Shown here one piece after another: positions 3,873 to 64,000 of a DNA stretch of 64,000 nt. Position 1 is the stretch's first letter, and every line of letters starts with the position of its first letter. The notes below the pieces were generated by a model, which saw only the letters and a list, made by a program, of their open reading frames with translations, did not search any database and was not told the DNA's origin. The position numbers and the translations under genes are program-made. The stretch is from Octopus vulgaris (lineage: Eukaryota): the NCBI GenBank assembly GCA_951406725.2, contig OX597827.1:84630001-84694000 (forward strand), given 5' to 3'.

Positions 3873-3917
<45 letters not shown>

Positions 3918-3919
<2 letters not shown>

Positions 3920-4298: not shown

Positions 4299-4319
4299 TA
4301 TATATATATATATATATAT

Positions 4320-6664: not shown

Positions 6665-6697
6665 GAATATGTTTCGGCCTTATTAATTCTCATCAGC
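6665..6697 (-). ncRNA. Degenerate hammerhead-ribozyme-like motif (probably Penelope-derived)
   Basis: Minus strand CTGATGA-gaattaataaggcc-GAAA-catatt; core present but stem II broken. Confidence 0.35.
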
Positions 6698-7697: not shown

Positions 7698-7752
7698 CAT
7701 TGATTAGTTACAAGGAATATTTTAAAATATCTGAGTGCATTGTTAATGTGTG

Positions 7753-7813
<61 letters not shown>

Positions 7814-7847
7814 AAGAAAGAGGCTTTTGGAGCCAATTTCGCATGAA

Positions 7848-8062
7848 ATATTGGTTTCAAATGTTTGGCACAAGACCATCTATTTCACGAGGGAAGGTAA
7901 GACGATGAAATTGACCCCAGTATTCAACTGGTACTTATTTTATTGACCCTGAAAGAATGAAAGGCAAAGTCGATCTCGGCAACATTTAAACTTAGAACTT
8001 AAAGACGGATGAAACGATGCAAAGCATTTTGTCCGGCATGCTAATTCTGTCGGCTCACCGCC
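7848..8062 (-). mobile_element. SINE family B variant (different tail), diverged
   Basis: Reverse complement of the B head and body. Confidence 0.8.
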
Positions 8063-8660
8063 TTAATTTCACACGAATTATTGCAATAAATTTTACCCTA
8101 ATTCTCATGCAAATCTGACTTAGGGTAAAAGTTCAATAAATTTATTTAACATTAAATATTTGTCAAATAAAATCAAAGTTGGGTAATCTTTTCTTGATAA
8201 TAATTAAAATTGTGCCCGTCAGAATGCGATTCAAAATGGCTCTCTGCCAGTTTCAACGATGAGTGATTCAGTTGTTTGATCAACGGAAGAATTTATTAAA
8301 GTATTGTATATGTGGCTGAGTATTCCTTTAATGTTGTCCCCAGAGGGAATTAGCGTGATACAGCATGTACCAAAGATGATCGTTTGGCTAGTAGGCACAA
8401 TGAAAATAGTTTCCATCTGATCATTTTTATAGACAATTTTTTTTTTTACTATTACACCTTGAAACTATGGTAGAGACCACCTACCCCAGATTCCATGTAA
8501 TGAGATCGAATCTGGGACATCATTACTACGGAAGAACTTCCCAACTCTTGGACAAACCTGCGCTCATCATGCTGCCCATATACACACTTCCCACACAAAC
8601 TGATAAACAACTGAGAATCATCTCGTTCTTCCCTCTCTCACCTGACACACACTCTCCCTC

Positions 8661-8691
<31 letters not shown>

Positions 8692-10307
8692 TATATCAAG
8701 AGAGAGAGAGAGAGAGACAGACAGACATGTATACATAACTGCATTCACATATGTGTGTATGTAAGTTTACTTTTAGTGCTACTAGTAGCATTTAATCCAG
8801 CACAAGCTGTTACATGGTCAGCCTTCCAGTGACTAAAATCTCCCCTAGGGCCATTTCAGATTGATAAGGTTGCTAAAACCCCAACAGAAGAAAAGACTTT
8901 CATAAAAAGGAAAAAAGTAACTTCCAATATGGGATCAACGAGTACCTTGTTATGTCGTGGGTAGGAGATAGAAATAATCAAGATGGTAGGCAAACAAGTG
9001 CGCTAGAAACTGACTTAGTGATTGATGGTGACCGAGTTGTTGTGAGACATAGGTAGATAGGATTCTGTAGCCTTGTTGGGTTGACCTGTCTCCACTAGCC
9101 TGCTGCTTTGTGGGTAAGTCCATCATGATAAGGTTAGAAATATATCTCCTGAATGGTCAGCTTAAGACAGTTTATGCTAGATTAGATTTCTGACAACGCT
9201 GGGAGGGAGTCATCACGGGCCACGTCTTGGCTCCCTCACATCGGAATAAACCGGGAAAGGCAAATCATTAAAAGTTTCATTGGGTAAATACCTTTACCTT
9301 CAGTGTTGATTATGAAACATCGGTTTCAGGGGTGGAGGTTGTTGCTACGACAGACCGGTATCACGTTTGTAATTTCCTTGCGTGTGAGGGCGCATAGTAT
9401 TTCTGGCATAAGGCATTAGCAGTCGCAATTTCTCTGTTTGGCCGTGATCGTTGCGGTGGGATGCAAGCAGAAGCTTGATCGACCCCAACTGGATCAACTT
9501 GGACGAGCAGGTTTGATGTTGAATGATTCAAAATGCCATACCACTCCTGTATTATCACTGGTGATGCATCCCAGAGTATCCAAAAGACGTATTTTGCAAC
9601 TTTTGTAATTCTGACCGTGAGATACATAATAAGAAAAAAAATTCATTATGTAGTTGGAATCCTGTAACGAAGAATATAAATTATGATACATAATTAAGAA
9701 GGATAAATCCGAGAACCAGAGAGAGAAAATCCATTTCGTTCCCAGTATGGAGTCAAACTGTAAACAGCGGAGATTTGAAATAGGAAAGCTGCAATCACAA
9801 GATTGAAATGTGAATGTGGAATCTCGACATGGAATCAGCGAGGTTCAAAAGATCAGAGCCATACCAAAGAGAGACAGCTAATCAGGAGTTCAAAGCCGAC
9901 ATCCCGCTGATGATAGATCTGTTTGAAACTATGATTAATGAGTTCACCCCAACAGTTATCAGCCTGGCATCCACTGACAACCTGGAAAAATGTGAAATGA
10001 CACGCATGCGCACTAGAATTTCTTTCCTTCCTTTTCATTATCTGTGTGTGTGTATACTCACATACACACATTTATTGCATCAAGAGAAATATGAATATAT
10101 GTCTGCTTTAAAAAGTGTCCACACATTAATGACATTAGTATAATTATATATACAAATCATGTACAATGATACGTGTATACATGCAACACCGGATTAACCT
10201 CTACATCTAACCATATATGTATACAGGTCCGCATTTATCTATCTGCCTGTCTGTCTATCTATTTATCTATCTATCTATTTATATACATACATACATATAT
10301 ATATATA

Positions 10308-10518
10308 GCCCGAAACTTTCGTGACCTCCTGGTCCACGGCACCTAGGCTGGCTCCTTCCCCTGCTCTCGCCCATACTTTCGCACCTACCCCTACTTCTCC
10401 AACACCACCATCCTCACTGGCACTCATCGCCGTCTTACCTGCACCTCCAACAATGTTATTTACTGCATTTCCTGCTCTCTCTGTCCTTCTCTGTACATTG
10501 GTCAAACGGGACGCCGCA
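10308..10518 (+). pseudogene. Penelope-like retroelement GIY-YIG endonuclease fragment
   Basis: Translates ARNFRDLLVHGT*AGSFPCSRP...[28 protein letters not shown], the VIY..C..C..YIGQT motif of PLE endonucleases. Confidence 0.8.
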
Positions 10519-10584
10519 TGGAAACAACCACGGAACAATGTGGTTGTCAAGCAAGCTTTTTAGCACACAGCCACGCCTGCACCT
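10510..10584 (-). mobile_element. SINE family A head fragment
   Basis: Reverse complement ggtgcaggcgtggctgtgtgctaaaaagcttgcttgacaaccac. Confidence 0.7.
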
Positions 10585-10919
10585 GTATGTATGTATGTAT
10601 GTATGCATGCATGCATGCATGCATGCATGCATGCATGCATGTATGTATGTATGTATGTATGTATGTATGTATGTATGTATGTATGTATGTATGTATGTAT
10701 GCATGCATGCATGCATGCATGCATGCATGTATGTATGTATGTATGTATGTATGTATGTATGTATGTATGTATGTATGTATGTATGTATGTATGTATGTAT
10801 GCATGCATGCATGCATGTATGCATGTATGTATGTATGCATGCATGTATGAACACATACATATATATATGCACATATATATACATATACACACATATACAT
10901 ACACACACACATATATATA

Positions 10920-10973
<54 letters not shown>

Positions 10974-11063
10974 TATGTATATACACACACATATATATAT
11001 GTATATACATATATATATAGATAGATCTTTATATATATATATACACATACATAGATATTTTTA

Positions 11064-11127
<64 letters not shown>
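10585..11127. repeat. Compound (TATG)n/(CATG)n/(TA)n microsatellite
   Basis: Directly visible alternating purine-pyrimidine tracts. Confidence 0.95.
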
Positions 11128-11129
<2 letters not shown>

Positions 11130-12268
11130 GTACAACTGTTAAAATTTGGTATAACATAAAAATTTCAGATATTTGTCTTAAACATTCAGACAAGCAAATT
11201 CATAATTCAGATGTATGAGATATTATTCCTTTCAAATAACTACATATTTATATGAAGACAAAGATGATAAAATATTGAAATTTAAGAATATAAACATAAA
11301 AAATAATTTTTTTTTAAATATAAGGAGTACCATGACAGAAATATAGCTAAGTGTCCACAGTTTCATCTGGTCAGCTACAGTGACCACTGGGTACATCCAT
11401 ATTTCTTTTCTTTTTTTCCGTTGCCATATTTTGTGGTGATATGACTAGCAGAGAATGGTGATTCCACCGATGATGCTGCTGACAGTTTCAATGTATTACT
11501 TTCAGACTCCATCGAGTCACGGAAAACGGCCAACGCCCAACACACAAATTTTGGGGTTCTTCCCGTAGAATAATTGGCTTGACGCCGCTCAGAAAATTTA
11601 GAGTTCAACAACAACAAAAACAATAATAATAATAATAATAATTTCCCCTCACGGAGGGATTTGAAACAGGCTGCTTTCAAAAGCAATAAGAACAGTTCTT
11701 CAACAAACAAATAACTTCAGCAAACTTACAAAGCTCACCTTAGTTTCACACAGCCAAGTAGTATAATAACTTCAGGAGAACACATTTTAGACACTTTCAA
11801 AATATAAGAATATAATCATTTCTATACAAAGATTAACTAAGAAATTAAAAGGGTTGACGGGTGAGATTTTAGTTAATCATATAATACGCATACAGGATTT
11901 TGTATACGTGTTATATGGTGTTGATTCAGTAATTATCAACCACCTTAAATTATACTCAATGTTACTTTTCTGAAACGGCCGTAGGTTTGGACTGATCCTT
12001 TCAATCACCTCCTTTAATCTAGTCTAACTATATTTTCTACTTTCATGGTACTCAATATATTTTTTATGTTTATATTCCCATATTTCAATATTTTATCATC
12101 TTTGTCTTCATATAAATATGTGGTTATTTGAAGGGAATAATATCTCATACATCTGAATTATGAATTTGCTTGTCTGAATGTCGAAGACAAATATCTGAAA
12201 TTTTTATCTTATACCAAATTTTAACAGTTGTACTATATACTGGAGCTTTATCTCCATTAAGATTCTCG

Positions 12269-12272
<4 letters not shown>
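11128..12272. mobile_element. Foldback element with ~200-bp inverted repeats, inside (TA)n
   Basis: 11128-11336 is the near reverse complement of 12043-12236; (TA)n on both sides. Confidence 0.75.
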
Positions 12273-12318
<46 letters not shown>

Positions 12319-12725
12319 ATCGCACCTGTGGTGTCCTTAAAAGTAAAGTATATTCGTTGAATCTTCACTCTTCCCAAACAGTAAAACTGTAAAGTTTAAT
12401 ATTGTACTTTTAGCGGAAAATGTTAACTCCAAAATCCAGTGTATTAATTCAATTTTGCGGAGATATCTCAGCTCGGTACATGGACTTGCAACAGACAATG
12501 GTATACACGAGTTCATGCAATTATTAGAAACATAAACTGTCTAAATCAGTTTTGGAAATTTATATTTATGTTTTTATTACTAATTCGCCATGATAACTTC
12601 CTCCGCCTAGCTACATCCTCCATGCACCATATTTATTTACTTGTAGCCTCACCTGTTTACACTCTTACATCAACGAACTTCCACTATTCCAATAAAGTTT
12701 CTTTCTCTTACTGTTCCACATTATA

Positions 12726-12766
<41 letters not shown>

Positions 12767-13204
12767 GCCATGTGATATCCCCTATTTCTTATCGCCCTTT
12801 ACTTTTTTATCCTCCGATTATTTTTAAGCACTGCTTATTTTTAATCACTGTCAATTTTATTTCAGAATTAGCTGCTGTAAGTTTATCTCGCTCTTCTCAT
12901 AAATAATGGAATCCACTGTTTATTTTTTAAACTATCAACTTATTTTCTCTCTTGCCAATCTTCAACACCACCACCCCACCAGATACCGTATAATTGTTTT
13001 TCATAAAAAAAAAATAGCTCTTCCTGTTTCTTCAACATTATTACTTTTTCCTTTCCTCTTCTCCGTTGGTTTTTTTTTCATCATCGCTCGTGATACAGCG
13101 AGAGAGAAGAAACATTTCAAACTAATTAATTCTTCAACAAACTCCAGCAGGGAACGAAACACATTTTACATTTGTGGCATTCAATTACAAAATAATTGTG
13201 TATA

Positions 13205-13426
13205 TTCTTTTCTACTCTAGGCACAAGGCTCGAAATTCTGGAGGATGAGGGGGTGGGGAGCTGTCGATTAGATCGACCCCTGTACGCAACTGGTACTTAA
13301 TTTTTCGACCCCGAAAGGAGGAAAGGCAAAGTCGACCTCGGCGGAATTTGGACTCAGAACGCAGACAGACGAAATACCGCTAATCATTTCGTCCGGCGTG
13401 GTTAACGTTTCTGCCAGCTCGCCGCC
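13205..13426 (-). mobile_element. SINE family B variant
   Basis: Reverse complement of B head/body with tail cttgtgcctagagtagaaaag. Confidence 0.88.
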
Positions 13427-14811
13427 TTGTGTGTATGTATATATTATATGTGTGATGTGTGTATAAGTATATAATGTGTATGTGTGTATATGAAGCTACA
13501 TCCCTCTTTTGCAGGGGTTTCGACCCATAACTCCTTACACTCTAAGGAGAGAGGCTCAGGTCATATCCAGCTCATGACTGCAGGTCATACACCACCCCTG
13601 CATCTTTCTGAGTGGTCAAGGGTTCCCGGAGCAAAAGAACCTTGGATGTCGGAACCACTTCAAAGACACCAGTTGAACGTAGGGTAAATTGTGTCCCTTG
13701 AAGTTGACTTTCATTCCTCCAATAAGAGTTACCAGGCGGTAACCCAATACTCACCTTATATGTGAGTAAATAGATTTAATTTGCTTAAAACTTTGTCACA
13801 TTATTACATATGTTTACTCGCACTAAACTATTTCATTGTATGAGCATAATTATGTAATTGTATGAAATTGTTGACGAAGTCTTTCTTTTATAACTCATTT
13901 TCTCCCTTACATTGATCAATATTGCGACCCTCTTTTTTGCTCCTTATTCTCTTTTCACCCCCGACTTCATTCTCTTGCTGCCACTTCACTGATTTCATAC
14001 TTTGCTACGCGAAGAAATCAAAACGAAATCCTTTCTCCGACGTTTCGCACTTGACTTAGGGGGTTTTCCGCAACCAATTGAAACAAACTTTATATTTGAC
14101 CCATGAAAACAGTTTTTGTCGACCTTCCTACCACTAGTTTCATTGGATTCGATTTGTTTTTTGGCCTATACTCACACATAGATATCAACATATCTACAAT
14201 TACATATCTTCATACGTATACACACACACACACACACACACACACCAAACGTGCGTGTGTTACGTATGGATTTAACGATAGCGATCATTTTCCGTGATTT
14301 ACTCGCATTGGTAGTGATAAGGTTGTTATAACGTTTGATAATATTTAAAATTACACCCCGCCAACTCTCCACCCGACTCAACATCTATAATTCCATCACA
14401 ACAACCCTCAACCATCTTCCACCTCGCATCATCATTGCTCGCTCTTTAAACTTCAAAAGATCTTGCTGTGAATATTTTATCAAAATCCATCACGAGTCCC
14501 CCATCTCCATACTCATCGACACCTTCGCTCCTCCATTCCCCCATCACTCACACACACACATGAACACACACACACGAACACATATATATTATGCCACTCT
14601 TCGTACGCCCTTCTCACCACCACCACCACCACCACTCAGACGCACCTTAATCAAATAACGGATGAAATAATATATAAACATATTTATCCATCATTAAACA
14701 TGAATATAAATCATATGAACTTTCTAAACCACAAACACATCTACTCACCCAACAGCATACATACATACATACATACATACATACATGTACAACCGCATGT
14801 ATATACATACA

Positions 14812-14847
<36 letters not shown>

Positions 14848-15654
14848 TACAAACACATAGACATCTTCAAATACACTTATTTGTCATCCGATGTATGAGC
14901 AGACCTATACACTCATAAGTGAGTGCCTATACATGTATGTATATGAATGCATGTAAACAAATGTACACACACGCACTCACACACATGTCTATATATAGGT
15001 TATGTATATGCGCATATTAGTGCATACATATGTATAGGTATATGCTTGTGTATGCGTGCATATATATATATATATATATGCGTAATGTTTGTGTATATAA
15101 ATATACACATGTATGCGTGTATAGATACATATATATGCGTGATGTGTTTGTGCATGTAAGTATACACGTGTGTGTGTCCCTCTCTCTATATATTTACACG
15201 CATGTATATACTCGTATCCACCTATGCATTATATATATATATATGAAGTAGTTTCTGTGAAGTATTGTGAGGTATACTTTAAAGAATGTAGTTGTGCGAA
15301 GTAAACGATGAAATGAAATGAAATGAAAAGAGAACAAAGTTGCAGTTTTACCTTGTATTTCTATATTTCGTGGTGAAGAGCCCTTCTTCATGACATTCGG
15401 AAAATCGGCGGTTGGAAAAACTTTGTTGCTCAGATGTGTGTGTGGAGGTGGAGAAGTGACAGGAGAGGAAGAAGGAAGGTGATATGCGTGGACTGCTGTT
15501 TATAGGCCCTCCTTATAAACACATTTAAAACAGCTCTTAACAACAGGAAGGAACTACATGAAGCAGAGTGCTTGCTATAGCAAGTACAGTCCGCACATGT
15601 CACCTTCCTTCTTTCTCCCCTGTCCTTCCGCCACACACACACATAAATACACAC

Positions 15655-16030
15655 ATATTCTCTTTTACTTGTTCCAGTCATTTGACTGTAGCCATGTCAG
15701 AACACCACCTTTAGTCGAGCAAATCGACCCAAGGACTTTTTGTAAGCCTAGTACCAATTATATCGATCTTTTGCCGAACCGCTAGGTTACGGGGATGTAA
15801 ACACACCAGCATCGGTTGTCAAGCGATGTTGGAGGACAGACACACAAACACACACGCACACATATATATATACATATATATAGCGGTCTTCTTTCAATTT
15901 CCGTCTACCAAATCCACTCTCACGGCTTTGGTTGGCCCGAAGCTATAGTAGAAGACACTTGCTCAAAGTGCTACGCAGTGGGACTGAACCCAGAACCATG
16001 TGGTTCGTAAGCAAGCTACTTACCACACAT
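15655..16030 (-). mobile_element. SINE family A
   Basis: Reverse complement of the A head, body and tail. Confidence 0.88.
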
Positions 16031-16185
16031 AACGCATATATATATATAATATATATACACACACATATATATATACATATATAAACATATATAAATACAT
16101 ATACACATGTATACATATATGCACATGCATTTATATACATATATATACACACACACATATATATACATATATATACACATATATA

Positions 16186-17638
16186 CAGAAAACAGATTCC
16201 ATCACACTCCAGGGAGAGAAACTAGAAGTAGTTGATAGTTTCCGCTACCTGGGTGACCAAGTTAGTAGTGGAGGTGGATGCACAGAGAGTATCTATTTCT
16301 TTACTACCCACAAGGGGCTAAACACAGAGGGGACAAACAAGGACAGACAAACGGATTAAGTCGATTATATCGACCCCAGTGCGTAAATGGTACTTATTTA
16401 ATCGACCCCGAAAGGATGAAAGGCAAAGTCGACCTCGGCGGAATTTGAACTCGGAACGTAACGACAGACGAAATACGGCTACGCATTTCGCCCGGCGTGC
16501 TAACGGTTCTGCCAGCTCGCCGGTTCTGCACAGAGAGTATCACCACTAGAATACGAATAGCCTGGGCAAAGTTCAGAAAGCTCCTACCCCTACTGGCGAC
16601 AAAGGGTCTCTCTCAGAGCGAAAGGTAGATTGTATGATGCATGTGTGCGAACTGCCATGCTTCACGGTAGTGAAACATGGGCCGTGACTGCAGAGGACAT
16701 GTGTAGACTTGAAAGAAATGAAGCTAGCATGATCCGCTGGATGTGTATTGTCAGTGTGCACGCACGACAGAGTGTAAGCACCCTGAGAGAAATGCTAGAC
16801 ATAAGAAGCATCAAATGCGGTGTGCAAGAGTGACGCTTGCGATGGTATGGTCATGTACTGCGGATGGATGAGGAGAGATGTGTGAAGAAGTGCCGCTCCC
16901 AAACAGTTGAAGGAATCAGGGAGAGAGGTAGACCCAGGAAGACATGGGATGAGGTAGTCAAGCATGACCTCAGAGCGTTGGGCCTCACTGAGGCAATGGC
17001 GAAGGACCGAGATCTCTGGAGATATGCTGTGACTGTAAAGACCGGGCTGCTTCCTGCATCAGTTCCGCATAGCCCCTGCCCATTCAAAGTACCCCGGATC
17101 CCAGAACGTCCCGCTGTGCTTGAGGAGACCTGTTGAGTCAAGCACATGAACATGAACGTCGAAATAAATATCAATGGACATAGTAGTTGTGATGCCTGTG
17201 CCGGTGGGACATAAAAAGCACTATCCGAACGTGGCCGATACCAGCGCCGCCCCGACTGGCTTCTGTGCCGGTGGCACATAAAAAGCACCATCCGAACGTG
17301 GCCGATGCCAGCACCGCCCCGACTGGCTCCTGTGCCGGTGGCACATAAAAAGACCATCCGAACGTTGCCAGCGCCGCCTTGGCTGGCTTCCGTGCCGCTG
17401 GCACGTTAAAAGCTCCAACCGATCGTGACCGATGCCGGACCCCCCTGGCACCTGTGCAGGTGGCACGTAAAAAGCACCCACTACACCCGCGGAGTGGTTG
17501 GCGTTAGGAAGGGCATCCAGCCGTAGAAACTCTGCCAGATCAGACTGGAGCCTGGAGCAGCCCCTGGCTTCCCAGACCCCGGTCGAACCGTCCAACCCGT
17601 GCTAGCGTGGAAAACGGACGTTAAACGATGATGATGAT
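16186..17638 (+). mobile_element. 5'-truncated RTE-clade LINE (RT C-terminus, 3' UTR with tandem repeats, (GAT)n tail)
   Basis: LEVVDSFRYLG...RIRIAWAKFR...MLHGSETW...RLRWYGHVLR...RGRPRKTW...DRDLWR are typical RTE motifs; one in-frame stop; ends ttaaacgatgatgatgat. Confidence 0.92.
16294..16521 (-). mobile_element. SINE family B inserted into the RTE ORF, 15-bp TSD
   Basis: TSD tgcacagagagtatc at 16279-16293 and 16527-16541. Confidence 0.93.
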
Positions 17639-34052: not shown

Positions 34053-35929
34053 GAAATGTTCTTTTTCATTTGCGAGGAAACGCAGGGTCACTGTCTCCAC
34101 TGTAGGCCCTCTAATTGACGAAACTGGCACTCTCCAAGATAATGCCAAATCCATGGCCGAGATACTGCAGAAACAATACTGCTCTGTTTTCAGCAATCCT
34201 GATATGGCCGATCTGGGCTGTATCAGTGTGTCAACCCCCAACACACTATATCGGACATAACGTTTAGTGCCCCTGATGTCTTAGCGGCGATAAACGAAAT
34301 AAAACACAATTCAGCAGTGCCCCGATAGGTTCCCTGCTTGTGTCCTGAAGGTGTGTCGACACCAACTTGCATCTCCCCTTGCTAATCTGTGGAGAAACTC
34401 ACTGGATGCTGGCTATATTCCAAAAACCTTCTGTCCCAGTCTGTTGTCCCAGTTTTCAAAAAGGGAAACAAGTCCCTTGCAGTGAATTACCGTCCGATCT
34501 CACTCACCTCTCATATCATCAAGGTATTTGAGAGGGTGGTGAGATCTCAAATAACCCAATTTCTGGAAAGCAACAGACGGCTGATCTCCAACCAACATGG
34601 GTTCCGTAATGGAAGGGACTGCCTAACGCAGCTCCTGCATCACTTTGAGGACATTTTGAGAGCTTTGGGAGAGGGCTCCAACACCGATGTCATCTACCTT
34701 GATTTCAGTAAGGCCTTCGACAGGGTCGATCACAAGATCCTATTGAAAAAACTATCCAACATTGGTGTCTCTGGAAAGTTACTGAAATGGATTAAGTGTT
34801 TCCTGACAGACAGATCTCAACATGTTGTAGTTGAAGGGGTAAAATCAAGCCCAGCCAAAGTCAGTAGTGGCGTTCCGCAAGGCACTGTGCTGGGCCCACT
34901 TCTTTTCATCATTTACATTAATGACATTAATGACATCATCAAGCACAGCAACATAAAAATCTTTGCAGATGATTCCAAGCTACAGAAGGTCATAAATGAG
35001 GCGAGTGACCGGACAGCCTTCAGTCAGATCTACTGGCTGTTATCCAATGGGCAGAAAAAAACAATATGCTGCTGAACGAGGATAAATTTGAGCTAATCCA
35101 CTTTGGAAAAGAGGATGCCCTGAAACTCCCATACTCCCTTCCTTCAGGTGAAACTCTCGCGGCGTCCAACAACATCAGAGACTTGGGAGTAATTGTGGAC
35201 AACAACATAAGCTGGGCCACTCATATAAACACCAAAGTTGACATGGCCCGCAGAATGTGTTCCTGGATTCTCAGAACTTTCCAGTCGAGAGATATCCACA
35301 CCATTATCCTTCTCTTCTCCACTTTTGCCCGACCCCACCTTGAATACTGTTGTCCACTGTGGTCTCCCCACACAATACAAGGTATCAAAAAGTCGAAGCA
35401 CCTCAAAGGGCAATCACAAAAAAGATAGATGGCATGACAGGCCTCGACTATTGGGATCGACTAGAAAAGCTAAAACTTTATTCTCTCCAACGTCGTCGTG
35501 AGCGCTACATCATCTGCATGATGTGGAAAATATTCCATCAGCATTGCCCAAATGATGTTGGCATCACCTTTAAGGTACATCCAAGGCTTGGGCCCCGTGC
35601 CATCCGCCCAAAACAAAAATCGCACTCTCATCTCATAACAACAATACGGCACAATTATTTCACCTCAATTGGCCCCGCTCTCTTTAACATTACACCAAAA
35701 CACATTAAAACAGAAACTGACCCTATAGGGTTCAAGAAGTCTTTGGACAGATTCCTTCAAGAAATCCCGGATAAACCACCTACACCCGGATATGTCTCTG
35801 TAAACAATAACTCTCTACTTGAGTGGGCCATAGTGCCCAAATTCTGACTTGAAAGACTTCACCAGGTGGTGCTATTAAGTTAGACATGGCCTGGGCCAAT
35901 AATGGCCGAAACCTATCAAAGTATCAAAG

Positions 35930-35931
<2 letters not shown>
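34053..35931 (+). mobile_element. 5'-truncated LINE (second family; RT domain and C-terminus), (TATCAAAG)n tail, in (TA)n
   Basis: NYRPISLTS, QHGFR, YLDFSKAFD, SGVPQGTVLGP, FADD, YWDRLEKLKLYSLQRRRERY; several 1-nt frameshifts; 3' stem-loop ggcca-ataa-tggcc-gaaac. Confidence 0.93.
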
Positions 35932-39726: not shown

Positions 39727-40193
39727 ATGTATGTATGTATGTATGTATGTATGTATGTATGTATGTATGTATGTATGTTTACTTTATTACTAATTACTCT
39801 CTTCCAAGAACATTTTCACTCACTCTTAGCTCTTAGCTTCCCATACATTTTACTCATGTGTCTATCAGCGTCATAGACAGAATACTTTCACTTTAGTCTT
39901 CCTCAAATCATTCTGTCGCTATTTACTTTCATTTTATTCGTTGCCCACTGTGTGTGTGCGTTTGCGTGTGGTGTAAACCAGACTAAGAAAAGCATTTGAC
40001 ACACACACCAGAATGTGAGTTTTCTGTAAATTTTGCTTAATTGGAGTTTAAATTTTAAAAACTGGACCTGGCATGACGCGATGCATTGTACTCTCAAAAA
40101 TGCTAGGTAAATTGTAATTGAAGAAATCCTATATTGTAGATTTGTATAACTCCCAAAGGGAGGCAGATAAAATCTGCCTTTTATAATAAGAGA
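38364..40193 (-). mobile_element. Nested copy of the composite Helitron (5' module Y 39794-40193, captured DNA 39000-39793, H copy 2 38364-38999)
   Basis: Begins TC and ends CTAG; its flanks rejoin to actttattactaa|ttactctcttcc, identical to the intact internal site 39781-39805. Confidence 0.85.
39058..39378 (-). pseudogene. Mariner transposase HTH fragment (captured), copy 2
   Basis: Same translation as copy 1. Confidence 0.85.
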
Positions 40194-40593
40194 TTACTCT
40201 CTTCCAAGAACATTTTCACTCACTCTTAGCTCTTAGCTTCCCATACATTTTACTCATGTATCTATCATCGTCATAGACAGAATACTTTCACTTTAGTCTT
40301 CCTCAAATCACTCTGTCCGCTATTTACTTTCATTTTATTCGTTGCCCACTGTGTGTGTGCGTTTGCGTGTGGTGTAAACCAGACTAAGAAAAGCATTTGA
40401 CACACACACCAGAATGTGAGTTTTCTGTAAATTTTGCTTAATTGGAGTTTAAATTTTAAAAACTGGACCTGGCATGACGCGATGCATTGTACTCTTAAAA
40501 ATGCCAGGTAAATTGTAATTGAAGAAATCCTATATTGTAGATTTGTATAACTCCCAAAGGGAGGCAGATAAAATCTGCCTTTTATAAAAAGAG

Positions 40594-42375
<1,782 letters not shown>

Positions 42376-43146
42376 GATTGATTGATTGATTGATTCTAGT
42401 TTCAGCTTATGAGCTGTGGCCATGCTGGGGCACCGCCATTTTGTGTTGCTACTTGGTTTCAATTCATGGAGGCTTTCTAGCAGCTGCTATTTGGTGCATG
42501 AGAGAGTTCGATGCAGCTGCCCTCATCTGCCCCTCCTGCCGTGAAGTTGGTTCATCTGGGACACCTGACAGGAAGAGATCCAGCTTCATTTTAAAGACAT
42601 CTGTATCCACCCCATGCAGGTCTCTCAGGTTCTTCGGGAGGATATTGAAGAGCTGTGGGCCTCGGAAGCCCAGGCTATCACAGAATCTTGTCCTACATCT
42701 TGATGGCAGGTTTGGAGTCCTAGGCACCACGCAGTGGCGCCCAGTTCTGGCATTTGCGTAACTCTCGATGCCAAAGTTCAGGACACTTCCCTCCAGGATC
42801 TTCCAGATGTATATTATGGCATATCTTTCCCGCCTACGCTCCAGGGAATATAATTTTAATCTCTTGAGTCTTTCCCAGTAGCTTACATTCTGCATAGAGG
42901 CTATCTTCTTTGTGTAGCTTCGTTGGATCGCCTCAAGTTCTGTGATCAACTTGACACTGGATGGTGACCATAGCAGAGAGCAATAGTCAAAGTGGCTTAG
43001 GACAAGTGTCTTCCAGAGGACCATCATGGTTTCTTGTTCTCTTGTTCTAAAGGTTCTAAGAATCCATCCAGCCAGCCGTCTACATTTCATTGTCAGTTTA
43101 GCAACATGTACATGAAAGGTCGCGCCATCACTCATGTGAATACCCA
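42376..43146 (-). mobile_element. 5'-truncated LINE copy, near-identical to ~48593-49366, (AATC)n tail
   Basis: Protein matches the ORF2 C-terminus apart from about three residues; (TA)n on both sides. Confidence 0.95.
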
Positions 43147-43702
<556 letters not shown>

Positions 43703-44164
43703 GTGATATATGGTTCCGTTTTCAGCAGAGAAAGACGTGATTGCCTTTGCTCTGTGAAAAAGTCTGCATAGAACGGCGAAATAACCCACTGTAGTTGCAA
43801 AACGTAAAACTCTAAGTCATAGAGATCACTACAACACTTTGGTTAAAAATATTTTAAAAAATATATATATAAATATATACATATACACAGTAATTTTCAT
43901 TTTCGCCGAAACGCACATGGTGCAAAAATAACTGAATCAAGTTATCTCCTGCAAGAAAGAAAAAAGAAGCATCTCTCCCGAAAAAAATCCCGTAAACCAA
44001 AAAAAAATTATCCAGACCACATTGTTGGATTAAGTATCAATTTCATCTATTTCATATTTTATTTATTATTCTATTTTATCTTTCACTTAGGCCCACATCT
44101 TAGTTAAAGTTGCGATCGTCATTTGGTTTGTTTACATTTTCAATAACTGTTCTCGATATAATAA

Positions 44165-45355
44165 TTTTCCAGATACTCTATCTTCTAATTAGCCTTAAGA
44201 TTAAATTAAATAACGTTTAATATTGATACCGTCAAATTAGCCTTAGGATTAAATTAAATAACGTTTAATATAGTTTAATATTGTTAATAATTATTGTTAA
44301 TTAGCCTTAAGATTAAATTAAATAACGTTTAATATTGTTTTAATATTGTTAATAATTTTTCAGATACTCTATCTTCTAATTAGCCTTAAGATTAAATTAA
44401 ATAACGTTTAATATTAATAACGTCTAATTAGCCTTAGGATTAATTTAAATAACGTTTAATATTGTTAATAATTATTGTTAATTAGCCTTAGGATTAAATT
44501 AAATAACGTTTAATATTGTTTAATATTGTTAATAATTACTGTTAATTAGCCTTAAGATTAAATTAAATAACGTTTAATATTGTCTAATATTGTTAATAAT
44601 TATTGTTAATTAGCCTTAGGATTAAATTAAATAACGTTTAATATTGTTTAATATTGTTAATAATTATTGTTAATTAGCCTTAAGATTAAATTAAATAACG
44701 TTTAATATTGTTTTAATATTGTTAATACTTCTTCAGATACTCTATCTTCTAATTAGCCTTAAGATTAAATTAAATAACGTTTAATATTACCCACACTCTA
44801 ATATAATATTAACATTGCTAATATATTTTCAGATACTCTATCTCCTGATTAGCCTTAAGATTAAATAACGTTTTTATCCACACTCTAATATAATATTAAT
44901 ATTGCTAATATATTTTCAGATACTCTATCTTCTAATTAGCCTTAAGATTAAATTAAATAACGTTTAATATTAATAACGTCTAATTAGCCTTAAGATTAAA
45001 TTAAATAACGGTTAATATTGCTTAATATTGTATATATAATTTTTCAGATACTCTGTCTTCTAATTAGCCTTAAGATTAAATTAAATAACGTTTAATATTA
45101 CCCACACTCTAATATAATATTAATATTGCTAATATATTTTCAGATACTCTATCTCCAAATTAGCCTTAAGATTAAATAACGTTTTTTTACCCACACTCTA
45201 ATATAATATTAATATTGCTAATATATTTTCAGATACTCTATCTCCTAATTAGCCTTAAGATTAAATAACGTTTTTACCCAAATAACGTTTTTACACAAAC
45301 TTTAATATTGTTAATATTTCTTTTTCAAGTACTCTATCTTCTAATTAGCCTTAAT
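44165..45355 (+). repeat. AT-rich tandem array, about 17 copies of aattagcctta(a/g)gattaaa(ttaaa)taacgttt with a few reused linkers
   Basis: Counted by eye; ends ~60 nt before the ORF1 ATG. Confidence 0.92.
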
Positions 45356-45415
45356 ATCTTCCTGTCTTCTCTCGAACATAATTAGATAGATAAACGGATA
45401 GACGGATTATCCAGC

Positions 45416-46327
45416 ATGTCCAGAGCATGGAGACGTGACGAGCTGGATTTATTCGTACGAGCATGGGAGTGCGCCGGCGGAGATAGCCCTAGCGAGGTGA
45501 TTGCGGCTGCGCTGAAGAGCAGAGGCTACAAGAGGACAGCGGCTCAGATGGAGCGAAAGAGACAGGAATTCGTGCGCTCATATGCGCTTGTACGGTCGCA
45601 CATTGGCGCACTTGATGCCATCTTTGAGAACGAGCGGGGCAAAGATGGCAAGAATGGAGACGATGAAAGAAGTCACCCCCACCTGGTGGACGCCCAGGAG
45701 GAGGTTTTGAATGAGAAACCTGCCCGGGAAGTGAACCCAGGTGCAAGTTCTCCAACCGGCAGCAAGGGCCATGGAGACGGAGAACCCGGTGAAGAGGTAG
45801 AGGGAGGAAGAAGAACTAAAAGAAGGACTGGAAGAGCTAAAGGAAAAGAAAAAGCTCAAGCAGGACCAAAGAGTGAAACAACCAGGAGTAGAAGTGGAAC
45901 CGCAAAGGATGGAACCAAACAGCGCACACGGGTGTGTATGTTCTACCTGAGAGGTTCCTGCTGGCACGGAAAGGAAGGTGCAGGCTGCCGCTTTGCACAT
46001 CGGGGACCCTGCCACAGAGACACGAGGCAGATGGACAAACCATCAACACAAAGAAAAGGGATGGACTACGCACCACCTGCCCCAAAGCGGAGGTACGCAG
46101 ATGTTGTGCGCGCCACAAACAGCCAACATGATGTTGTCGAAAGAGCAGTTGCTGAGCAACAATCTTTTTTGTGCATGGCACAAAAGATTGTACAGCAGCT
46201 GACCTGGCTTCATCAAACCCAAGCCCGCAGGTGGGACTACCCACTATATACCAGACCACCACAGCAAACAGACACAGGATGGACACCGCCGGCAACAACG
46301 TACACCTCACCTCGATACTCCTACTGA
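45416..46327 (+). CDS. LINE ORF1 protein (303 aa): Myb/SANT-like N-terminus, basic linker, CCCH zinc finger
   Basis: W..DE..LFVRAW...IAAALKSRGYKRTAAQ..RK......Y resembles trihelix/Myb-SANT-like domains; C-x7-C-x8-C-x3-H at ~45935-46000; intact ORF overlapping the ORF2 start. Confidence 0.85.
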   Translation: MSRAWRRDELDLFVRAWECAGGDSPSEVIAAALKSRGYKRTAAQMERKRQEFVRSYALVRSHIGALDAIFENERGKDGKNGDDERSHPHLVDAQEEVLNEKPAREVNPGASSPTGSKGHGDGEPGEEVEGGRRTKRRTGRAKGKEKAQAGPKSETTRSRSGTAKDGTKQRTRVCMFYLRGSCWHGKEGAGCRFAHRGPCHRDTRQMDKPSTQRKGMDYAPPAPKRRYADVVRATNSQHDVVERAVAEQQSFLCMAQKIVQQLTWLHQTQARRWDYPLYTRPPQQTDTGWTPPATTYTSPRYSY

Positions 46328-47058
46328 ACATCAGAGGACTGCAAACACTCAGTAACAGGACAAAGATCCCGTTCCTGAGAGACTTTGTTGCATGCAATCA
46401 AGCCTTATGCATAGCACTTACAGAAACGCACCTGAAACCGGACATAGCAGATGCGGAGTTACACATACCACAGTATGCTGTACTACGGACCGACAGGAAA
46501 GAAAGGAGTCATGGAGGTGTTGCTATGTACATCCGTGAGGACCTCACACCCCAGGTCCTCTTGTCATACTCAAACTCGGTGTGTGACACACTAATTGTAC
46601 ATATTAGGCAACTTGATGTAGTTGTGTGTGCTACATATCGCCCTCCAGATGCCCCAAGCCATGTGGGCAAGTTCGAAGACTGCCTTATAAAAATAGAAGA
46701 AATTCTAACCACATTAGAACAACACATAGGTGTGCTTCTTATGGGAGACTTCAATCTGCCCAATGTCAGATGGCCCGAGGGCCTTTCTCTCCCAGGAATG
46801 ACAAGATGTGAACGAGGACAGGCGAGGTCCCTCCTGAACCTCATCAACACCCTGTACATGGAGCAGGTAATACTCCAACCAACCAGGGCAGGTAACACAC
46901 TGGATCTCTGCTTCACAAATGACATGGATCTCATCCATAATGTGGAAGTGACACCGACACTACTCTCGGATCACAACATGATAGAGCTGACAATGTACGG
47001 GCCAAAAGAGAGCACGGACATGCAGCCTACAAGAAACCTCAAAATCTTTCCAGCTTGA
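46279..47058 (+). CDS. LINE ORF2, apurinic-like endonuclease part (ATG at 46279; frameshift near 47037)
   Basis: LLNIRGL, LTETHL, GGVAMYI, YRPP, GDFN, PTR..NTLDL, SDHN motifs. Confidence 0.92.
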   Translation: MDTAGNNVHLTSILLLNIRGLQTLSNRTKIPFLRDFVACNQALCIALTETHLKPDIADAELHIPQYAVLRTDRKERSHGGVAMYIREDLTPQVLLSYSNSVCDTLIVHIRQLDVVVCATYRPPDAPSHVGKFEDCLIKIEEILTTLEQHIGVLLMGDFNLPNVRWPEGLSLPGMTRCERGQARSLLNLINTLYMEQVILQPTRAGNTLDLCFTNDMDLIHNVEVTPTLLSDHNMIELTMYGPKESTDMQPTRNLKIFPA

Positions 47059-49274
47059 ACTACCATAAGGCAAACTGGAAACAAATTGAGAAAGAGATCC
47101 TCAAACAAAACTGGCCTGAATGTCTCTCCTCGCCAGACATCGACGTGAAACTTCAACAATTCATGTCTGTAATGCAAGCCATATGCTACAAATGTGTCCC
47201 AGAGAGAAAGGCCACTGTACACAAGAACAAAATCCCCAGAGAGAGGAAAATTTTAATGAGACGGCGTACGAAATTTTCAAATCGCCTAAACAAACAGATT
47301 GAAAGCAGTGAAAAGTCCCGCCTAAAAATAAAACTGTTGGAAATCGAAAAATGTCTGCAACTCTCCCATGAAAAAGAAAGAGCAGACAAAGAAGCCTGGG
47401 CTATAGAAAACATAAAATCTAACCCCAGAGCTTTCTACAGGTATGCCAAAGAAACAGCTACAGTGCACTGTAGAATAGGGCCACTCCTCGAAAAGGATGG
47501 CACACTTACAGGAAAACCAATGAGGGTAAGTGAAATACTGAATGAGCAATTCAAGAGTGTTTTCACTCCACCCCTTGGGCATCTCCAAATCACCAATCCA
47601 ACTGACTTTTTTACCACTGCAGATATAAAATCAGAGGCGGCGACGATAGATTACATCGATATAAAGGAAGACGATGTAACCAAGGCTATAGATGAAATGA
47701 AAACAGACTCAGCTACTGGCCCCGATGGATTCCCGGCAATCCTCCTAAAAGCATGTAAGAGAGTCCTAGCAAGACCACTGCAGTTCCTCTTTCAGAGCTT
47801 CCTTGCAGCTGGCAAACTTCCAGGAAAACTGAAGGAAGGTAAAATATGCCCCATTCATAAAGGAGGTAGCAGAGCGGAAGCCAAGAACTATAGACCTATC
47901 TCTCTGACCTCACACATCAGCAAGGTCATGGAACGAATAGTCAGAAGGAAGCTGATCACCTTCCTTGAAGAGAATGACTTGCTGCCCGACACCCAACATG
48001 GTTTCCGACCAGGGAGAAGCTGTTTAACTCAGCTCCTACAACACTATGACTGGGTGCTGAAACGGCTGCTCAACCACTCAAATGTGGAAGTGATATATCT
48101 CGACTTTGCAAAGGCCTTTGATAAAGTCGATCATGGAATGATATGTCACAAACTGCGTGATCTCAACATAGTTGGAAAACTGGGAGAATGGCTTCATGAC
48201 TTTCTGAAGGATAGAAGTCAGGTGGTAGTAGCCAATGGGGCCACCTCCATTAACACACAAATAGTGAGCGGTGTTCCGCAGGGCACTGTTCTGGGACCAC
48301 TACTGTTCATAATGGCCCTCTCAGACATGCCCTCAGCCACGCAGAGAGCCACGATCACAAGTTATGCAGATGATACAAAAGTTTCACAGGCAATACAGAA
48401 CCCTGAGGACACTAAACACCTGCAATGTGAGCTGGACGAAATATACAAGTGGGCTGAAAAGAATAGCATGCAGTTCAATGCTGGAAAGTTTCAAGCTTTA
48501 TACTATCAGCATGCAAAACTGAATGCAATACCCAATGAATACACTGGACCCGGAGGGATTGCAATCCCAGAGGCACAATCAGTGCGTGACCTGGGTATTC
48601 ACATGAGTGATGACGCGACCTTTCATGTACATGTTGCTAAACTGACAATGAAATGTAGACGGCTGGCTGGATGGATTCTTAGAACCTTTAGAACAAGAGA
48701 ACAAGAAACCATGATGGTCCTCTGGAAGACACTTGTCCTAAGCCACTTTGACTATTGCTCTCAGCTATGGTCACCATCCAGTGTCAAGTTGATCACAGAA
48801 CTTGAGGCGATCCAACGAAGCTACACAAAGAAGATAGCCTCTATGCAGAATGTAAGCTACTGGGAAAGACTCAAGAGATTAAAATTATATTCCCTGGAGC
48901 GTAGGCGGGAAAGATATGCCATAATATACATCTGGAAGATCCTGGAGGGAAGTGTCCTGAACTTTGGCATCGAGAGTTACGCAAATGCCAGAACTGGGCG
49001 CCACTGCGTGGTGCCTAGGACTCCAAACCTGCCATCAAGATGTAGGACAAGATTCTGTGATAGCCTGGGCTTCCGAGGCCCACAGCTCTTCAATATCCTC
49101 CCGAAGAACCTGAGAGACCTGCATGGGGTGGATACAGATGTCTTTAAAATGAAGCTGGATCTCTTCCTGTCAGGTGTCCCAGATGAACCAACTTCACGGC
49201 AGGAGGGGCAGATGAGGGCAGCTGCATCGAACTCTCTCATGCACCAAATAGCAGTTGCTAGAAAGCCTCCATGA
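47055..49274 (+). CDS. LINE ORF2, reverse transcriptase and C-terminal part
   Basis: GPDG, NYRPISLTS, QHGFR, YLDFAKAFD, SGVPQGTVLGP, YADD, VRDLG; open for 739 aa. Confidence 0.95.
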   Translation: MNYHKANWKQIEKEILKQNWPECLSSPDIDVKLQQFMSVMQAICYKCVPERKATVHKNKIPRERKILMRRRTKFSNRLNKQIESSEKSRLKIKLLEIEKCLQLSHEKERADKEAWAIENIKSNPRAFYRYAKETATVHCRIGPLLEKDGTLTGKPMRVSEILNEQFKSVFTPPLGHLQITNPTDFFTTADIKSEAATIDYIDIKEDDVTKAIDEMKTDSATGPDGFPAILLKACKRVLARPLQFLFQSFLAAGKLPGKLKEGKICPIHKGGSRAEAKNYRPISLTSHISKVMERIVRRKLITFLEENDLLPDTQHGFRPGRSCLTQLLQHYDWVLKRLLNHSNVEVIYLDFAKAFDKVDHGMICHKLRDLNIVGKLGEWLHDFLKDRSQVVVANGATSINTQIVSGVPQGTVLGPLLFIMALSDMPSATQRATITSYADDTKVSQAIQNPEDTKHLQCELDEIYKWAEKNSMQFNAGKFQALYYQHAKLNAIPNEYTGPGGIAIPEAQSVRDLGIHMSDDATFHVHVAKLTMKCRRLAGWILRTFRTREQETMMVLWKTLVLSHFDYCSQLWSPSSVKLITELEAIQRSYTKKIASMQNVSYWERLKRLKLYSLERRRERYAIIYIWKILEGSVLNFGIESYANARTGRHCVVPRTPNLPSRCRTRFCDSLGFRGPQLFNILPKNLRDLHGVDTDVFKMKLDLFLSGVPDEPTSRQEGQMRAAASNSLMHQIAVARKPP

Positions 49275-49382
49275 AGTGAAACCAAGTAGCAACACCAAAT
49301 GGCGGTGCCCCAGCATGGCCACAGCTCATAAGCTGAAACTAGAATCAATCAATCAATCAATCAATCATATATATATATATAT

Positions 49383-49420
<38 letters not shown>

Positions 49421-49421
<1 letters not shown>

Positions 49422-50115
49422 GGCTAGCTGGAGGGAGCTGCATCGAACTTCTCATGAACAAGAGAGAAGGAGATACTGATGGTCCTATGGAAAACATTCG
49501 TCCTCAGCCGCTTGGACTACTGCTCCCAACTTTGGTCACCACACAATATAAAACAAACAGCAGAACTCAAAGCAACTCAGAGAAGCTACACAAAGAAAAT
49601 CGTCTCAATGCAAAATGTCAGCTACTGGGAAAGACTGAAGGTATTAAACCTCTTCTCCCTGGAGCGGAGGCGGGAGAGATATGCAGTGATATACATCTGG
49701 AAAATCCTGGAGGGTCTTGTCCCAAACTTTGGCATTCAAAGTTACTCCAACCGCAGAATGGGCGCCGCTGCATGGTGCCAAGGATTCCAACATCACCATC
49801 AAAATACAGGTCCAGATACTACAACAGCTTGGGTTTCAGAGGACCACAGCTCTTTAACATCCTCCCTAAATGCCTGAGAGACTTACATGGTGTGGATGTG
49901 GGTTTCTTTAAAACTAAACTGGATCTCTTCTTGTTGGGAGTCCCAGATGAACATACCTCACGAAAGGAGACACGGATGCGGGCAGCAGCATCGAACTCCC
50001 TTGTTGATCAAGTGCCACGTATCAGAGGTGGATTCACAAACTAGTGTAGCTCATTCAGCGGTGGTGCCCCAGCATGGCCGCGGCCTTCGGGCTAAAACAT
50101 TTTTAAGGATTTAAG

Positions 50116-50118
<3 letters not shown>
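49421..50118 (+). mobile_element. 5'-truncated LINE, related subfamily, (TTTAAGGA)n tail
   Basis: [19 protein letters not shown]...[12 protein letters not shown]...RAAASNSL; 3' motif ggtggtgccccagcatggccgcggccttcgggctaaaac; (TA)n on both sides. Confidence 0.92.
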
Positions 50119-50146
<28 letters not shown>

Positions 50147-50763: not shown

Positions 50764-50829
50764 GTATATATATATATGTATGTATATATATATATGTATG
50801 TATATATATATATGTATGTATGTATATAT
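50119..50829. repeat. (TA)n array
   Basis: Directly visible. Confidence 0.95.
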
Positions 50830-51722
50830 GATTGATTCATTGATTGATTCTAGTTTCAGCTCATGAGCTGTGGCCATGCTGGGGCACCGCCATTTGGTGT
50901 TGCTACTTGGTTTTACTTCACGAAAGCTTTTTAGCAACTCCCATTTGGTGCATGAGAGAGTTCGATGCAGCTGCCCTCATCTGCACCTCCTGCCGTGAAG
51001 TTGGTTCATCTGGGACACCTGACAGGAAGAGATCCAGTCCTGCTTTAAAGACATCCGCATCTACACCATGTAGGTCCCTCAGGTTCTTCGGGAGGATATT
51101 GAAGAGCCGTGGGCCTCTGAAGCCCAGGCTATCACAATATCTTGTCCTACATCTTGATGGCAGATTTGAAGTCCTTGGTACTACGCAGTGGCGTCCGGTT
51201 CTGGCATTTGTGTGACTCTCGATGCCAAAGTCTGGGACAAGACCCTCCAGGATCTTCCAGGTATATATTATGGCATATCTTTCCCGCCTACGCTCCAGGG
51301 AATAGAGCTTTAATCTCTTGAGTCTCTGCCAGTAGCTCATATGCTGCACAGAGGCTATCTTCTTCGTGTAGCTTCGTTGGACGCCTCAAGTTCTGTGATC
51401 AACTTGACACTGGATGGTGACCATAGCTGAGAGCAATAGTCAAAGTGGCTGAGGACAAGTGTCTTCCAGAGGACCATCATGGTTTCTTGTTCTCTTGTTC
51501 TAAAGGTTCTAAGAATCCATCCAGCCAGCCGTCTACATTTCATTGTCAGTTTAGCAACATGTACATGAAAGGTCGCGTCATCACTCATGTGAATACGCAG
51601 GTCACGCACTGATTGTGCCTCTGGGATTGCAATCCCTCCGGGTCCAGTGTATTCATTGGGTATTGCATTCAGTTTTGCATGCTGATAGTATAAAGCTTGA
51701 AACTTTTCAGCATTGAACTGCT
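50830..51722 (-). mobile_element. 5'-truncated LINE copy, mosaic, (AATC)n tail
   Basis: Colinear with ~48470-49366; one 1-nt deletion near 51381; (TA)n on both sides. Confidence 0.93.
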
Positions 51723-60487: not shown

Positions 60488-61457
60488 TATTCTTTTCTAC
60501 CCTAGGCACAAGGCCCGAAATTTGGGGGAGGGGGCCAGTCAATTAGATCGACCACAGTACACAACTGGTGTTTAATTTGTCGACCCCGAAAGGATGAAAG
60601 GCAAAGTCGACCTCGGCGGAATTTGAACTCAGAACGTACAGACAGACGAAATACCTATTTCTTTACTACCCAGAAAGGGGCTAAACACAGAGACCTCAAA
60701 CAAGGACCGACAAACGGATTATCGACCCCAGTGCTTAACTGGTACTTATTTAATCGACCCTGAAAAGATGAAAGGCAAAGTCAACCTCGGCGGAATTTGA
60801 ACTCAGAACGTAGCGACAGACGAAATACCTATTTCTTTATTACCCACAAGGGGCTAAACACAGAGGGGGCAAACAAGGACAGACATAGGTATTAAGTCGA
60901 TTACATCGACCCCAGTGCGTAACTGGTACTTAATTTATCGACCCCGAAAGGATGAAAGGCAAAGTCGACCTCGGCGGAATTTGAACTCAGAACGTAGCGG
61001 CAGACGAAATACCGCTAAGCAGTTCGTCCGGCGCGCTAACGTTTCTGCCAGCTTACCGCCTTTCGACAGACGAAATACCGCTAAGCAGTTCGTCCGGCGC
61101 GCTAACGTTTCTGCCAGCTCACCGCCTTTCGACAGACGAAATACCGCTAAGCAGTTCGTCCGGCGCGCTAACGTTTCTGCCAGCTCACCGCCTTTCGACA
61201 GACGAAATACCGCTAAGCAGTTCGTCCGGCGCGCTAACGTTTCTGCCAGCTCACCGCCTTTCGACAGACGAAATACCGCTAAGCAGTTCGTCCGGCGCGC
61301 TAACGTTTCTGCCAGCTCACCGCCTTTCGACAGACGAAATACCGCTAAGCAGTTCGTCCGGCGCGCTAACGTTTCTGCCAGCTCACCGCCTTTCGACAGA
61401 CGAAATACCGCTAAGCATTTCGCCCGGCGTCCTAACGTTTCTTCCTGCTCGCCGCCT
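60488..61457 (-). mobile_element. Nest of three SINE B bodies with a 66-bp tandem amplification of the head
   Basis: Three bodies joined at aagaaata|ggtatttcgtc; seven heads at 66-bp spacing (~61000-61457). Confidence 0.92.
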
Positions 61458-61993
61458 TAACATATTGTAATATTAAATAATGATATATTCTTTATGCTTT
61501 ACATATTGTTTATAATATTTTCTATAATTCTGCATACTATATTCAACCCTCACAGTATATATATATATATATATATATTTCCAACATCCTATACAATATT
61601 ATTGCCTTCCATCAGTTACTTCGCATAATTGGCTAAATTAGATCTCCTTTCCTGCTATTAGTTCATTTTAACGAGGATATATATAGGTGTGTGTATGTGT
61701 GAAAGAGAATGTTTGTGTGTGCATTTATACAGACAGACAGACAGACAGACAGACAAACCGAGCATGGAGAATCTGGCACCTTCGATGATTACTGGATGCG
61801 TATCATATAACAAGTGATAGGAGCTAGTTACTTGTACACTTGCCATGAAGTAAAACCTCTTTGGGTCTAATTATTTGAAGTGTGAACGTGAGAGAACGAA
61901 GGGTAATGGTTGACATGGAGATATCTACCTATCTATCTGTCTGTCTGTCTGTCTTTCTATACACACACAATTATGACAGATGAAGAGAGAGAT

Positions 61994-63847: not shown

Positions 63848-64000
63848 TACCCGCCCACGGCCTTCACCCACCCATGGCCTTCACCCGCCCACGGCCTTCA
63901 CCCGCCCACGGCCTTCACCCACCCATGGCCTTCACCCGCCCACGGCCTTCACCCACCCCCGGCCTTCACCCGCCCACGGCCTTCACCCACCCACGGCCTT
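63848..64000. repeat. 17-bp GC-rich minisatellite (cacccRcccaYggcctt)n, about 9 copies, runs off the window
   Basis: Directly visible. Confidence 0.92.

Follow-up and report, generated by a model that had tools for sequence, protein, structure and literature searches.

A LINE must carry its promoter within its transcript, and elements of the CR1 group typically end on their 3' side in short tandem repeats, have no LTRs and leave many 5'-truncated copies. In mouse L1 elements of the L1Md A, Gf and Tf types, tandem monomers of ~200 bp (~650 bp in rat) lie at the very 5' end, are CpG-island-like, and are each sufficient for reporter expression (PMC5381506, PMC7778262). The cow L1 5' UTR contains a T-rich block of short repeats of ~840 bp within a low-GC UTR, and L1 elements of horse, elephant, hyrax and opossum have tandem motifs of 70-100 bp in 2-3 copies in the 5' UTR (PMC5381506). 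Within the CR1 group, vertebrate elements devoid of ORF1 carry 1-5 subunits of 100-500 bp near the 5' UTR (PMC13343379), and PHD-type L2/CR1 subgroups have a 5' region described as 'highly repetitive' (PMC4120745).

The array considered here, located at positions 44165..45354 (+) of a 64,000-nt stretch of the Octopus vulgaris genome (the window, contig OX597827.1), belongs to a young, 5.65-kb LINE of the CR1 group inserted in (TA)n. It resembles the mouse and rat L1 arrays in having tandem units followed by a short unique tether to ORF1, and in a unit content that varies among copies, but differs from them in that modular units of 48-96 nt and 20% GC stand behind a 450-bp leader, in an element of the CR1 group and not in an L1. 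With the L1 elements of cow, horse and elephant it has in common that a block of repeats lies within a long 5' UTR of a LINE, the cow element being closer to it than that of the mouse; those elements, however, are L1s with low-complexity sequence or only 2-3 motif copies, whereas the octopus array is a core-plus-linker structure of 17 units with higher-order repeats. The repeated CR1-group elements have no separate ORF1, in contrast to the octopus element with its full ORF1 and its shorter and more numerous units. In kind, the array would be comparable to a LINE 5' regulatory repeat, in an AT-rich, modular and internal version in a mollusc CR1-group element, and is probably not a mouse-type monomer promoter.

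The 5' insertion site is a (TA)n-type microsatellite outside the element (43149..43711; TRF period 2, 281 copies), and sibling fragments likewise lie in (TA)n. Downstream of the array and ORF1, ORF2 (46156..49274, +), with an apurinic endonuclease and a reverse transcriptase, matches the Pfam families Exo_endo_phos_2 (E 1e-12) and RVT_1 (E 1e-30); it overlaps the end of ORF1 and in this copy has a frame change near 47040-47058, while a relative of 89% identity forms one continuous frame of 1033 aa and relatives carry the endonuclease and the reverse transcriptase in one frame. The ORF2 frame overlaps the final 170 nt of ORF1 (46156-46327), and two relatives, P0002 and P0003, reach into the same overlap. 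The best named relative of ORF2 comes from Argonauta hians. According to the sequence and TRF, the short 3' UTR (49275..49367, +) ends in (AATC)n, after which (TA)n begins; this tail is common to two 5'-truncated siblings of 99% and 94% identity. The placement in the CR1 group is based on domain content and tail, and is made at the level of the group, not of a clade within it. A poly-A tail is said to be a feature of Zenon alone within the CR1 group (PMC13343379), and active CR1 families have been reported in O. vulgaris (PMC13282606).

Four fragments related to the element are present in the window, with identities of 99%, 94%, 82% and 76%; three of them have (TA)n at both ends, and (TA)n runs make up 10% of the window. 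Copies truncated at the 5' end are found at 42375-43149 (-, 99%), 49414-50120 (+, 76%) and 50829-51721 (-, 94%), and a 5'-truncated copy of a more distant LINE family at 34063-35930 (+). The position of truncated copies between (TA)n runs suggests strong targeting of (TA)n and a local insertion hotspot. Four other tandem arrays in the window, at 60542-61458, 17195-17478, 39793-40595 and 63849-64000 (periods 174 and 66, 67, 401, and 17), look SINE-derived or minisatellite-like.

An earlier, sequence-only reading of this locus described about 17 copies of a core with reused linkers, ending ~60 nt before the ATG. This agrees with the 17 copies of the anchor TTAGCCTTA at 44189-45345, which are the only ones on the two strands of the window, and with the tether of 61 nt (45355..45415, +) that leads up to the ORF1 ATG at 45416. 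The array comprises 16 full units of 48-96 nt and a partial 17th; 13 of the cores are long (36 nt), three are short, and one, terminal, is partial. The units measure 48, 54, 64, 79-80, 87-89 or 96 nt and are composed of a few reused modules (core plus linkers), with the 48-64-nt types predominating in the 5' half and the 80-96-nt types in the 3' half. Units 4 and 12 are identical, and a block of 311 nt is duplicated at 44674..45294 (+; TRF period 311, 94%; 288 of 310 positions identical), while the most diverged unit is the last full one, with at most 79% identity to any other. Only 134-167 of the 1191 nt are non-redundant, so that any repeated motif is to be counted once. The array is ~80% AT with one CpG per core, the CpG observed/expected ratio of 1.7 resting on a very low C+G content. 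Both ATG and AATAAA are absent from its 1190 nt, which is compatible with a transcribed leader, the absence of ATG being statistically non-significant (P = 0.17). Thirteen of the 16 unit lengths (44189-45344) deviate by at most 1 nt from a multiple of 16 nt (48, 64, 79-80, 96), the others being 54, 87 and 89 nt; this is a post hoc observation on few independent length classes.

Other copies were surveyed in public sequencing runs. At least 20 of 24 runs, from eight studies and under two organism labels, contain 0.61-0.92 of 66 words sampled from the leader and two units (43704-44300); one of these 20 may be the source sample. The word-positive runs include some of only 45-199 million letters. 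Compared with the O. vulgaris genome of ~2.8 Gb (PMC13282606), such word content in runs of this size would imply many copies or transcription. The region 43690-44300 was mapped in four runs, designated X2, X8, X15 and X19, all of which consist of contigs.

The sequence preceding the array is the 5'-terminal leader of the LINE (43712..44164, +; 453 nt, 31% GC), which probably contains an internal core promoter. In contigs of X8, X15 and X19 other copies have a common sequence from ~43712 onwards and differ upstream of it; one contig carries an (ACAT)n flank there, and one X15 contig begins at 43713. Across this boundary the summed contig depth in X15 rises from 65 to 17,000, a sum that is not equivalent to copy number. 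One leader contig has a depth of 8329 beside variants at 8-31, which indicates many copies, if depth is read in this way. Since three of the four related fragments in the window are flanked by (TA)n, the 5' end of a copy is to be placed where (TA)n stops, at 43704-43712, and the shared boundary near 43712 means that the leader is the front end of the LINE itself, with the array ~450 bp inside. The leader had been called unique, which is correct within the window, but across the organism it belongs to the element, as it is found in other public runs. The absence of a long (TA)n between leader and array, also claimed earlier, has to be qualified by a short TA-like patch within the leader near 43844-43893; this interval is masked as repeat, and X2 has no cover over 43690-43899. 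In single contigs other copies start with CCGG or TTCCGG, directly ahead of the common 5' sequence (window 43708-43725), resembling the GACTTCCGGT 5' termini of zebrafish and lizard L1 (PMC5381506). X2 also contains a diverged leader, with 16 substitutions and 10 gaps over 170 nt at 43909-44080, pointing to a putative second subfamily with a 5' region of its own.

Near the 5' end of the leader there is a DPE-like AGACGTG (43733..43739, +), which matches seven of the eight positions of the downstream element situated at +29 to +36 in the Drosophila LINEs Doc, F, G, I and jockey (PMC1636488). As in these elements the motif lies just inside the 5' end, though at about +22 to +26 from this end, 3-7 nt nearer to it than the canonical +29 position. 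Such 7-mers occur 12 times in ~115 kb of both strands, the 7-mer itself is also present inside ORF1, and the probability of an occurrence in a 9-nt window is ~0.001, calculated post hoc. As a promoter sign the motif is suggestive only.

Both ends of the array were found joined to the element outside this locus. Single contigs bridge the leader to unit 1 in three of the four mapped runs, among 30 of 728 pieces: in X2 at 44010-44199 and in X8 at 44010-44198, each with no differences, and in X19, from the second organism label (organism B), at 43894-44216 with four differences; no crossing from leader to array was seen among the pieces listed for X15. The joint of the last unit to the tether appears in one of the four runs, in a 480-letter contig of X19 (organism B) with two unit pieces followed by the tether from 45355; it continues for at least 255 letters past the tether start, 30 of which are shown. 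The loose ends and joints of contigs from other runs contain linkers and unit orders foreign to this site, with the core anchor kept. Judged from these contigs, the array is a heritable and variable trait of the family and not a local satellite. Long, nearly exact repeats are prone to mis-assembly and the number of units given here comes from one assembly; nevertheless, an unrelated satellite, a locus-specific expansion or an assembly artefact is a barely credible explanation, largely refuted by the presence of both junctions in other runs and under a second organism label. The check proposed together with the sequence-only reading, whether the array is absent from other full-length copies or is an unrelated satellite, thus came out in favour of an array that belongs to the element.

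The explanation to which we give the most weight, although at somewhat less than an even chance, is that the array would act as a copy-variable, enhancer-like cluster of AT-rich protein-binding sites tuning a core promoter predicted at the first bases of the element. An arrangement of this kind is known from the human L1, in which the core promoter occupies the first 100-150 bp and regulatory elements lie downstream of it (PMC7778262). In the octopus element transcription would start near the 43712 boundary, and the array would enter the RNA and with it each full-length insertion. Its units would expand and be reshuffled by slippage, unequal exchange or template switching of the reverse transcriptase, host factors would read the shared core, and the number of units would set the strength of the promoter.

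A promoter of the mouse type, with a separate start site in every unit, would allow copies truncated inside the array to stay active. The order of array, tether and ORF1 is that of the mouse L1, and in all four mapped runs the summed depth over the unit core greatly exceeds that over the leader, as many units per copy or truncation within the array would produce, although summed depth does not stand for copy number. Full-length copies, however, begin ~450 bp ahead of the array, heterogeneous units of 48-96 nt with 20% GC contrast with CpG-island monomers of ~200 bp, and among the loose ends listed, to which 47 further ones have to be added, a single one situated at the start of a unit (X8, 44170) leads to an unrelated flank. 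The earlier reading of the array as a mouse-type monomer promoter does not fit an internal, 20%-GC array, since mouse monomers are terminal and CpG-island-like, and such a function is improbable; truncated copies might still use units as promoters.

TAACGT, described earlier as close to the Myb site YAACKG, occurs in 18 copies, but as a match to only five of the six positions; a true YAACKG is present once, at 45006, and not in each unit, and GGTTAA is likewise present once in the array. When the non-redundant sequence was compared with dinucleotide shuffles, none of the motifs tested was enriched (K50 homeodomain, P = 0.29; Sox, P = 0.22; Fox, TATA, Myb and GT-1 also not enriched). ATTAAA, the variant poly-A signal, has 15 non-overlapping occurrences on the + strand; as a bank of attenuators it was discarded, this number being expected in such AT-rich sequence. 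As RNA, six pieces of the array fold no better than shuffles (z -0.5 to 1.0), the whole-array centroid is mostly unpaired, and Rfam gave no match. A 27-nt core pattern had no match in the metagenome, viral and prokaryote collections.

The array had also been suggested to be a bank of splice acceptors, which would trap upstream transcripts or remove the array so as to shorten the leader of ORF1. YYYCAG|ATACTC is indeed present eight times, as claimed, and branch-like YTRAY words lie nearby, 13 of them on the two strands where 5 would be expected (P = 0.002). The eight acceptor-like sites, however, descend from one ancestral module, YYYCAG in 136 non-redundant nt having P = 0.10 in shuffles, and the excess of YTRAY is a consequence of palindromes rich in TTAA and TAAT, so that the bank is left with no statistical backing (P ~0.1); in addition, no canonical donor lies upstream, GTRAG being absent from both leader and array, and a variant unit in one X2 contig lacks the AG. 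No splice joint was noticed among the contig joints listed, in contigs that drop rare forms and with X2 and X19 only guessed to be RNA. Splicing would also delete the array from new copies, which nevertheless keep it. A function in splicing is therefore very improbable.

The main rival of an enhancer-like cluster is a neutral, tolerated spacer similar to a VNTR, generated by slippage in an AT-rich 5' UTR and persisting in every full-length transcript, from which selection would clear only harmful words such as ATG. Just such a spacer would be expected to contain only 134-167 non-redundant nt, with no motif enriched over shuffles, RNA structure within the range of shuffles and linkers varying freely among copies. 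On the other hand, runs under two organism labels retain the core anchor together with the two junctions, and a useless block of 1.2 kb would make 5' truncation more likely and would be expected to disappear. Conservation of the core could be due to recent homogenisation and not to selection. We consider a neutral spacer unlikely, though a serious alternative to the enhancer-like cluster.

ORF1 proteins are usually viewed as RNA chaperones. The ORF1 of this element (303 aa, 45416..46327, +) is predicted to consist of a Myb/SANT (trihelix-like) domain at residues 1-75, a low-complexity linker, one CCCH finger at ~170-196, which resembles Muscleblind fingers, and a C-terminal helix at 237-274. 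In the predicted structure, residues 1-75 form a bundle of three helices (7-19, 25-35 and 42-75; pLDDT 84-97 by block), with the DNA-binding domains of LUX Myb and GT-1 as best structural matches (Z 7.6, rmsd 2.0-2.6, 55-58 aligned), followed by Zeste, RAD, TRF1 and other Myb/SANT domains; the top 50 matches are mostly Myb/SANT/homeodomain-like, all fold scores have Z < 8, and a Foldseek search with the model of the whole ORF1 found nothing at E 0.001. The Pfam profile Myb_DNA-bind_4 (PF13837) scores 16.6 bits on ORF1, against a cut-off of 27, and matches six of 22 aligned ORF1 members with E up to 0.1 (best 0.0017), while the Atlas scores for a Myb-type domain are 0.79-0.86, at lead level. 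Altogether 32 relatives of ORF1 were found, 11 of which were left out of the alignment of 21 members; among 21 relatives that were looked up, the nine named ones are all from Octopus vulgaris or O. sinensis. Although the relatives are overall only 27-39% identical, helix 3 is kept, being basic and conserved (R40 in 19 of 21 members, Q44 in 19 of 21, K48 in 20 of 21); conserved tryptophans are only two, W5 and W17. Three weak lines of evidence thus agree in predicting a Myb/SANT DNA-binding fold for the N-terminus.

The combination of a predicted Myb/SANT domain and a CCCH finger (window 45416-45640) is common to many Octopus LINE relics annotated as hypothetical genes. The end of one O. sinensis gene model, P0130, annotated as LPIN3, is 62% identical to ORF1 residues 71-138 and is probably a mis-annotation or an exonised LINE fragment. 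ORF1 had no match in viral contigs, and a metagenome scan with the ORF2 alignment, which represents generic reverse transcriptase patterns, yielded two distant loci of 27-32% identity that have no bearing on the element. This type of ORF1 is also missing from two surveys of ORF1 proteins, in that 'myb', 'ccch' and 'sant' do not occur in the accessible text of PMC4120745, nor 'myb' and 'ccch' in that of PMC13343379. Literature searches for ORF1 with CCCH retrieved only papers on host factors, and those for ORF1 with Myb, SANT or trihelix no more than one paper on Ping/Pong and one report of a meeting. Neither the array nor the Myb/SANT-CCCH ORF1 is described in the literature searched, including the accessible parts of PMC13282606, PMC9115989 and PMC10294476; the family may be present in Repbase or Dfam, in subscription papers or in supplements.

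A DNA-binding ORF1 would make the array a candidate operator for the element's own protein, as the sequence-only reading had also proposed: the Myb/SANT-like domain would bind the core DNA and either feed back on transcription or load ORF1 near the nascent RNA. In PIF/Harbinger elements, with their GT1/Myb-like/SANT ORF1, and in Spm, with TnpA, a transposon-encoded domain of this type likewise stands beside repeated cis sequence, and in DNA transposons such domains act on repeats inside the element (PMC9921582). These, however, are cut-and-paste DNA transposons, whereas the octopus domain belongs to a LINE ORF1, is fused to a CCCH finger and is a putative DNA binder. The three-helix fold with its LUX and GT-1 matches, the weak Pfam matches and the basic, conserved helix 3 would suit an operator, but YAACKG and GGTTAA are present once each in the array, the fold scores stay under Z 8 and the profile scores under the Pfam cut-off, and the conservation of helix 3 among such diverged ORF1 proteins would be explained no less well by a ligand common to all of them, for instance the (TA)n target or chromatin, than by a family-specific array. 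We regard an operator as doubtful. The broader model built on it, equally doubtful, is that of an octopod LINE with its own regulator, in which the Myb/trihelix and CCCH protein would bind a copy-variable operator array in a self-tuning loop and might, in addition, direct new insertions to (TA)n. A self-tuning loop of ORF1 and operator in the style of DNA transposons is, to our knowledge, not described for LINEs in the papers searched.

Since LINE 5' repeat arrays arose several times, the array by itself represents a variation on a known theme, and the ORF1 domain is more novel than the array. Nevertheless, the order and the presumably variable number of units would provide a natural allelic series for LINE activity outside mammals, and it is worth mentioning that neural expression of LINEs has been reported in Octopus (PMC9115989). 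If the ORF1 domain binds DNA, this would represent a new role for an ORF1 protein, in autoregulation or in target choice.
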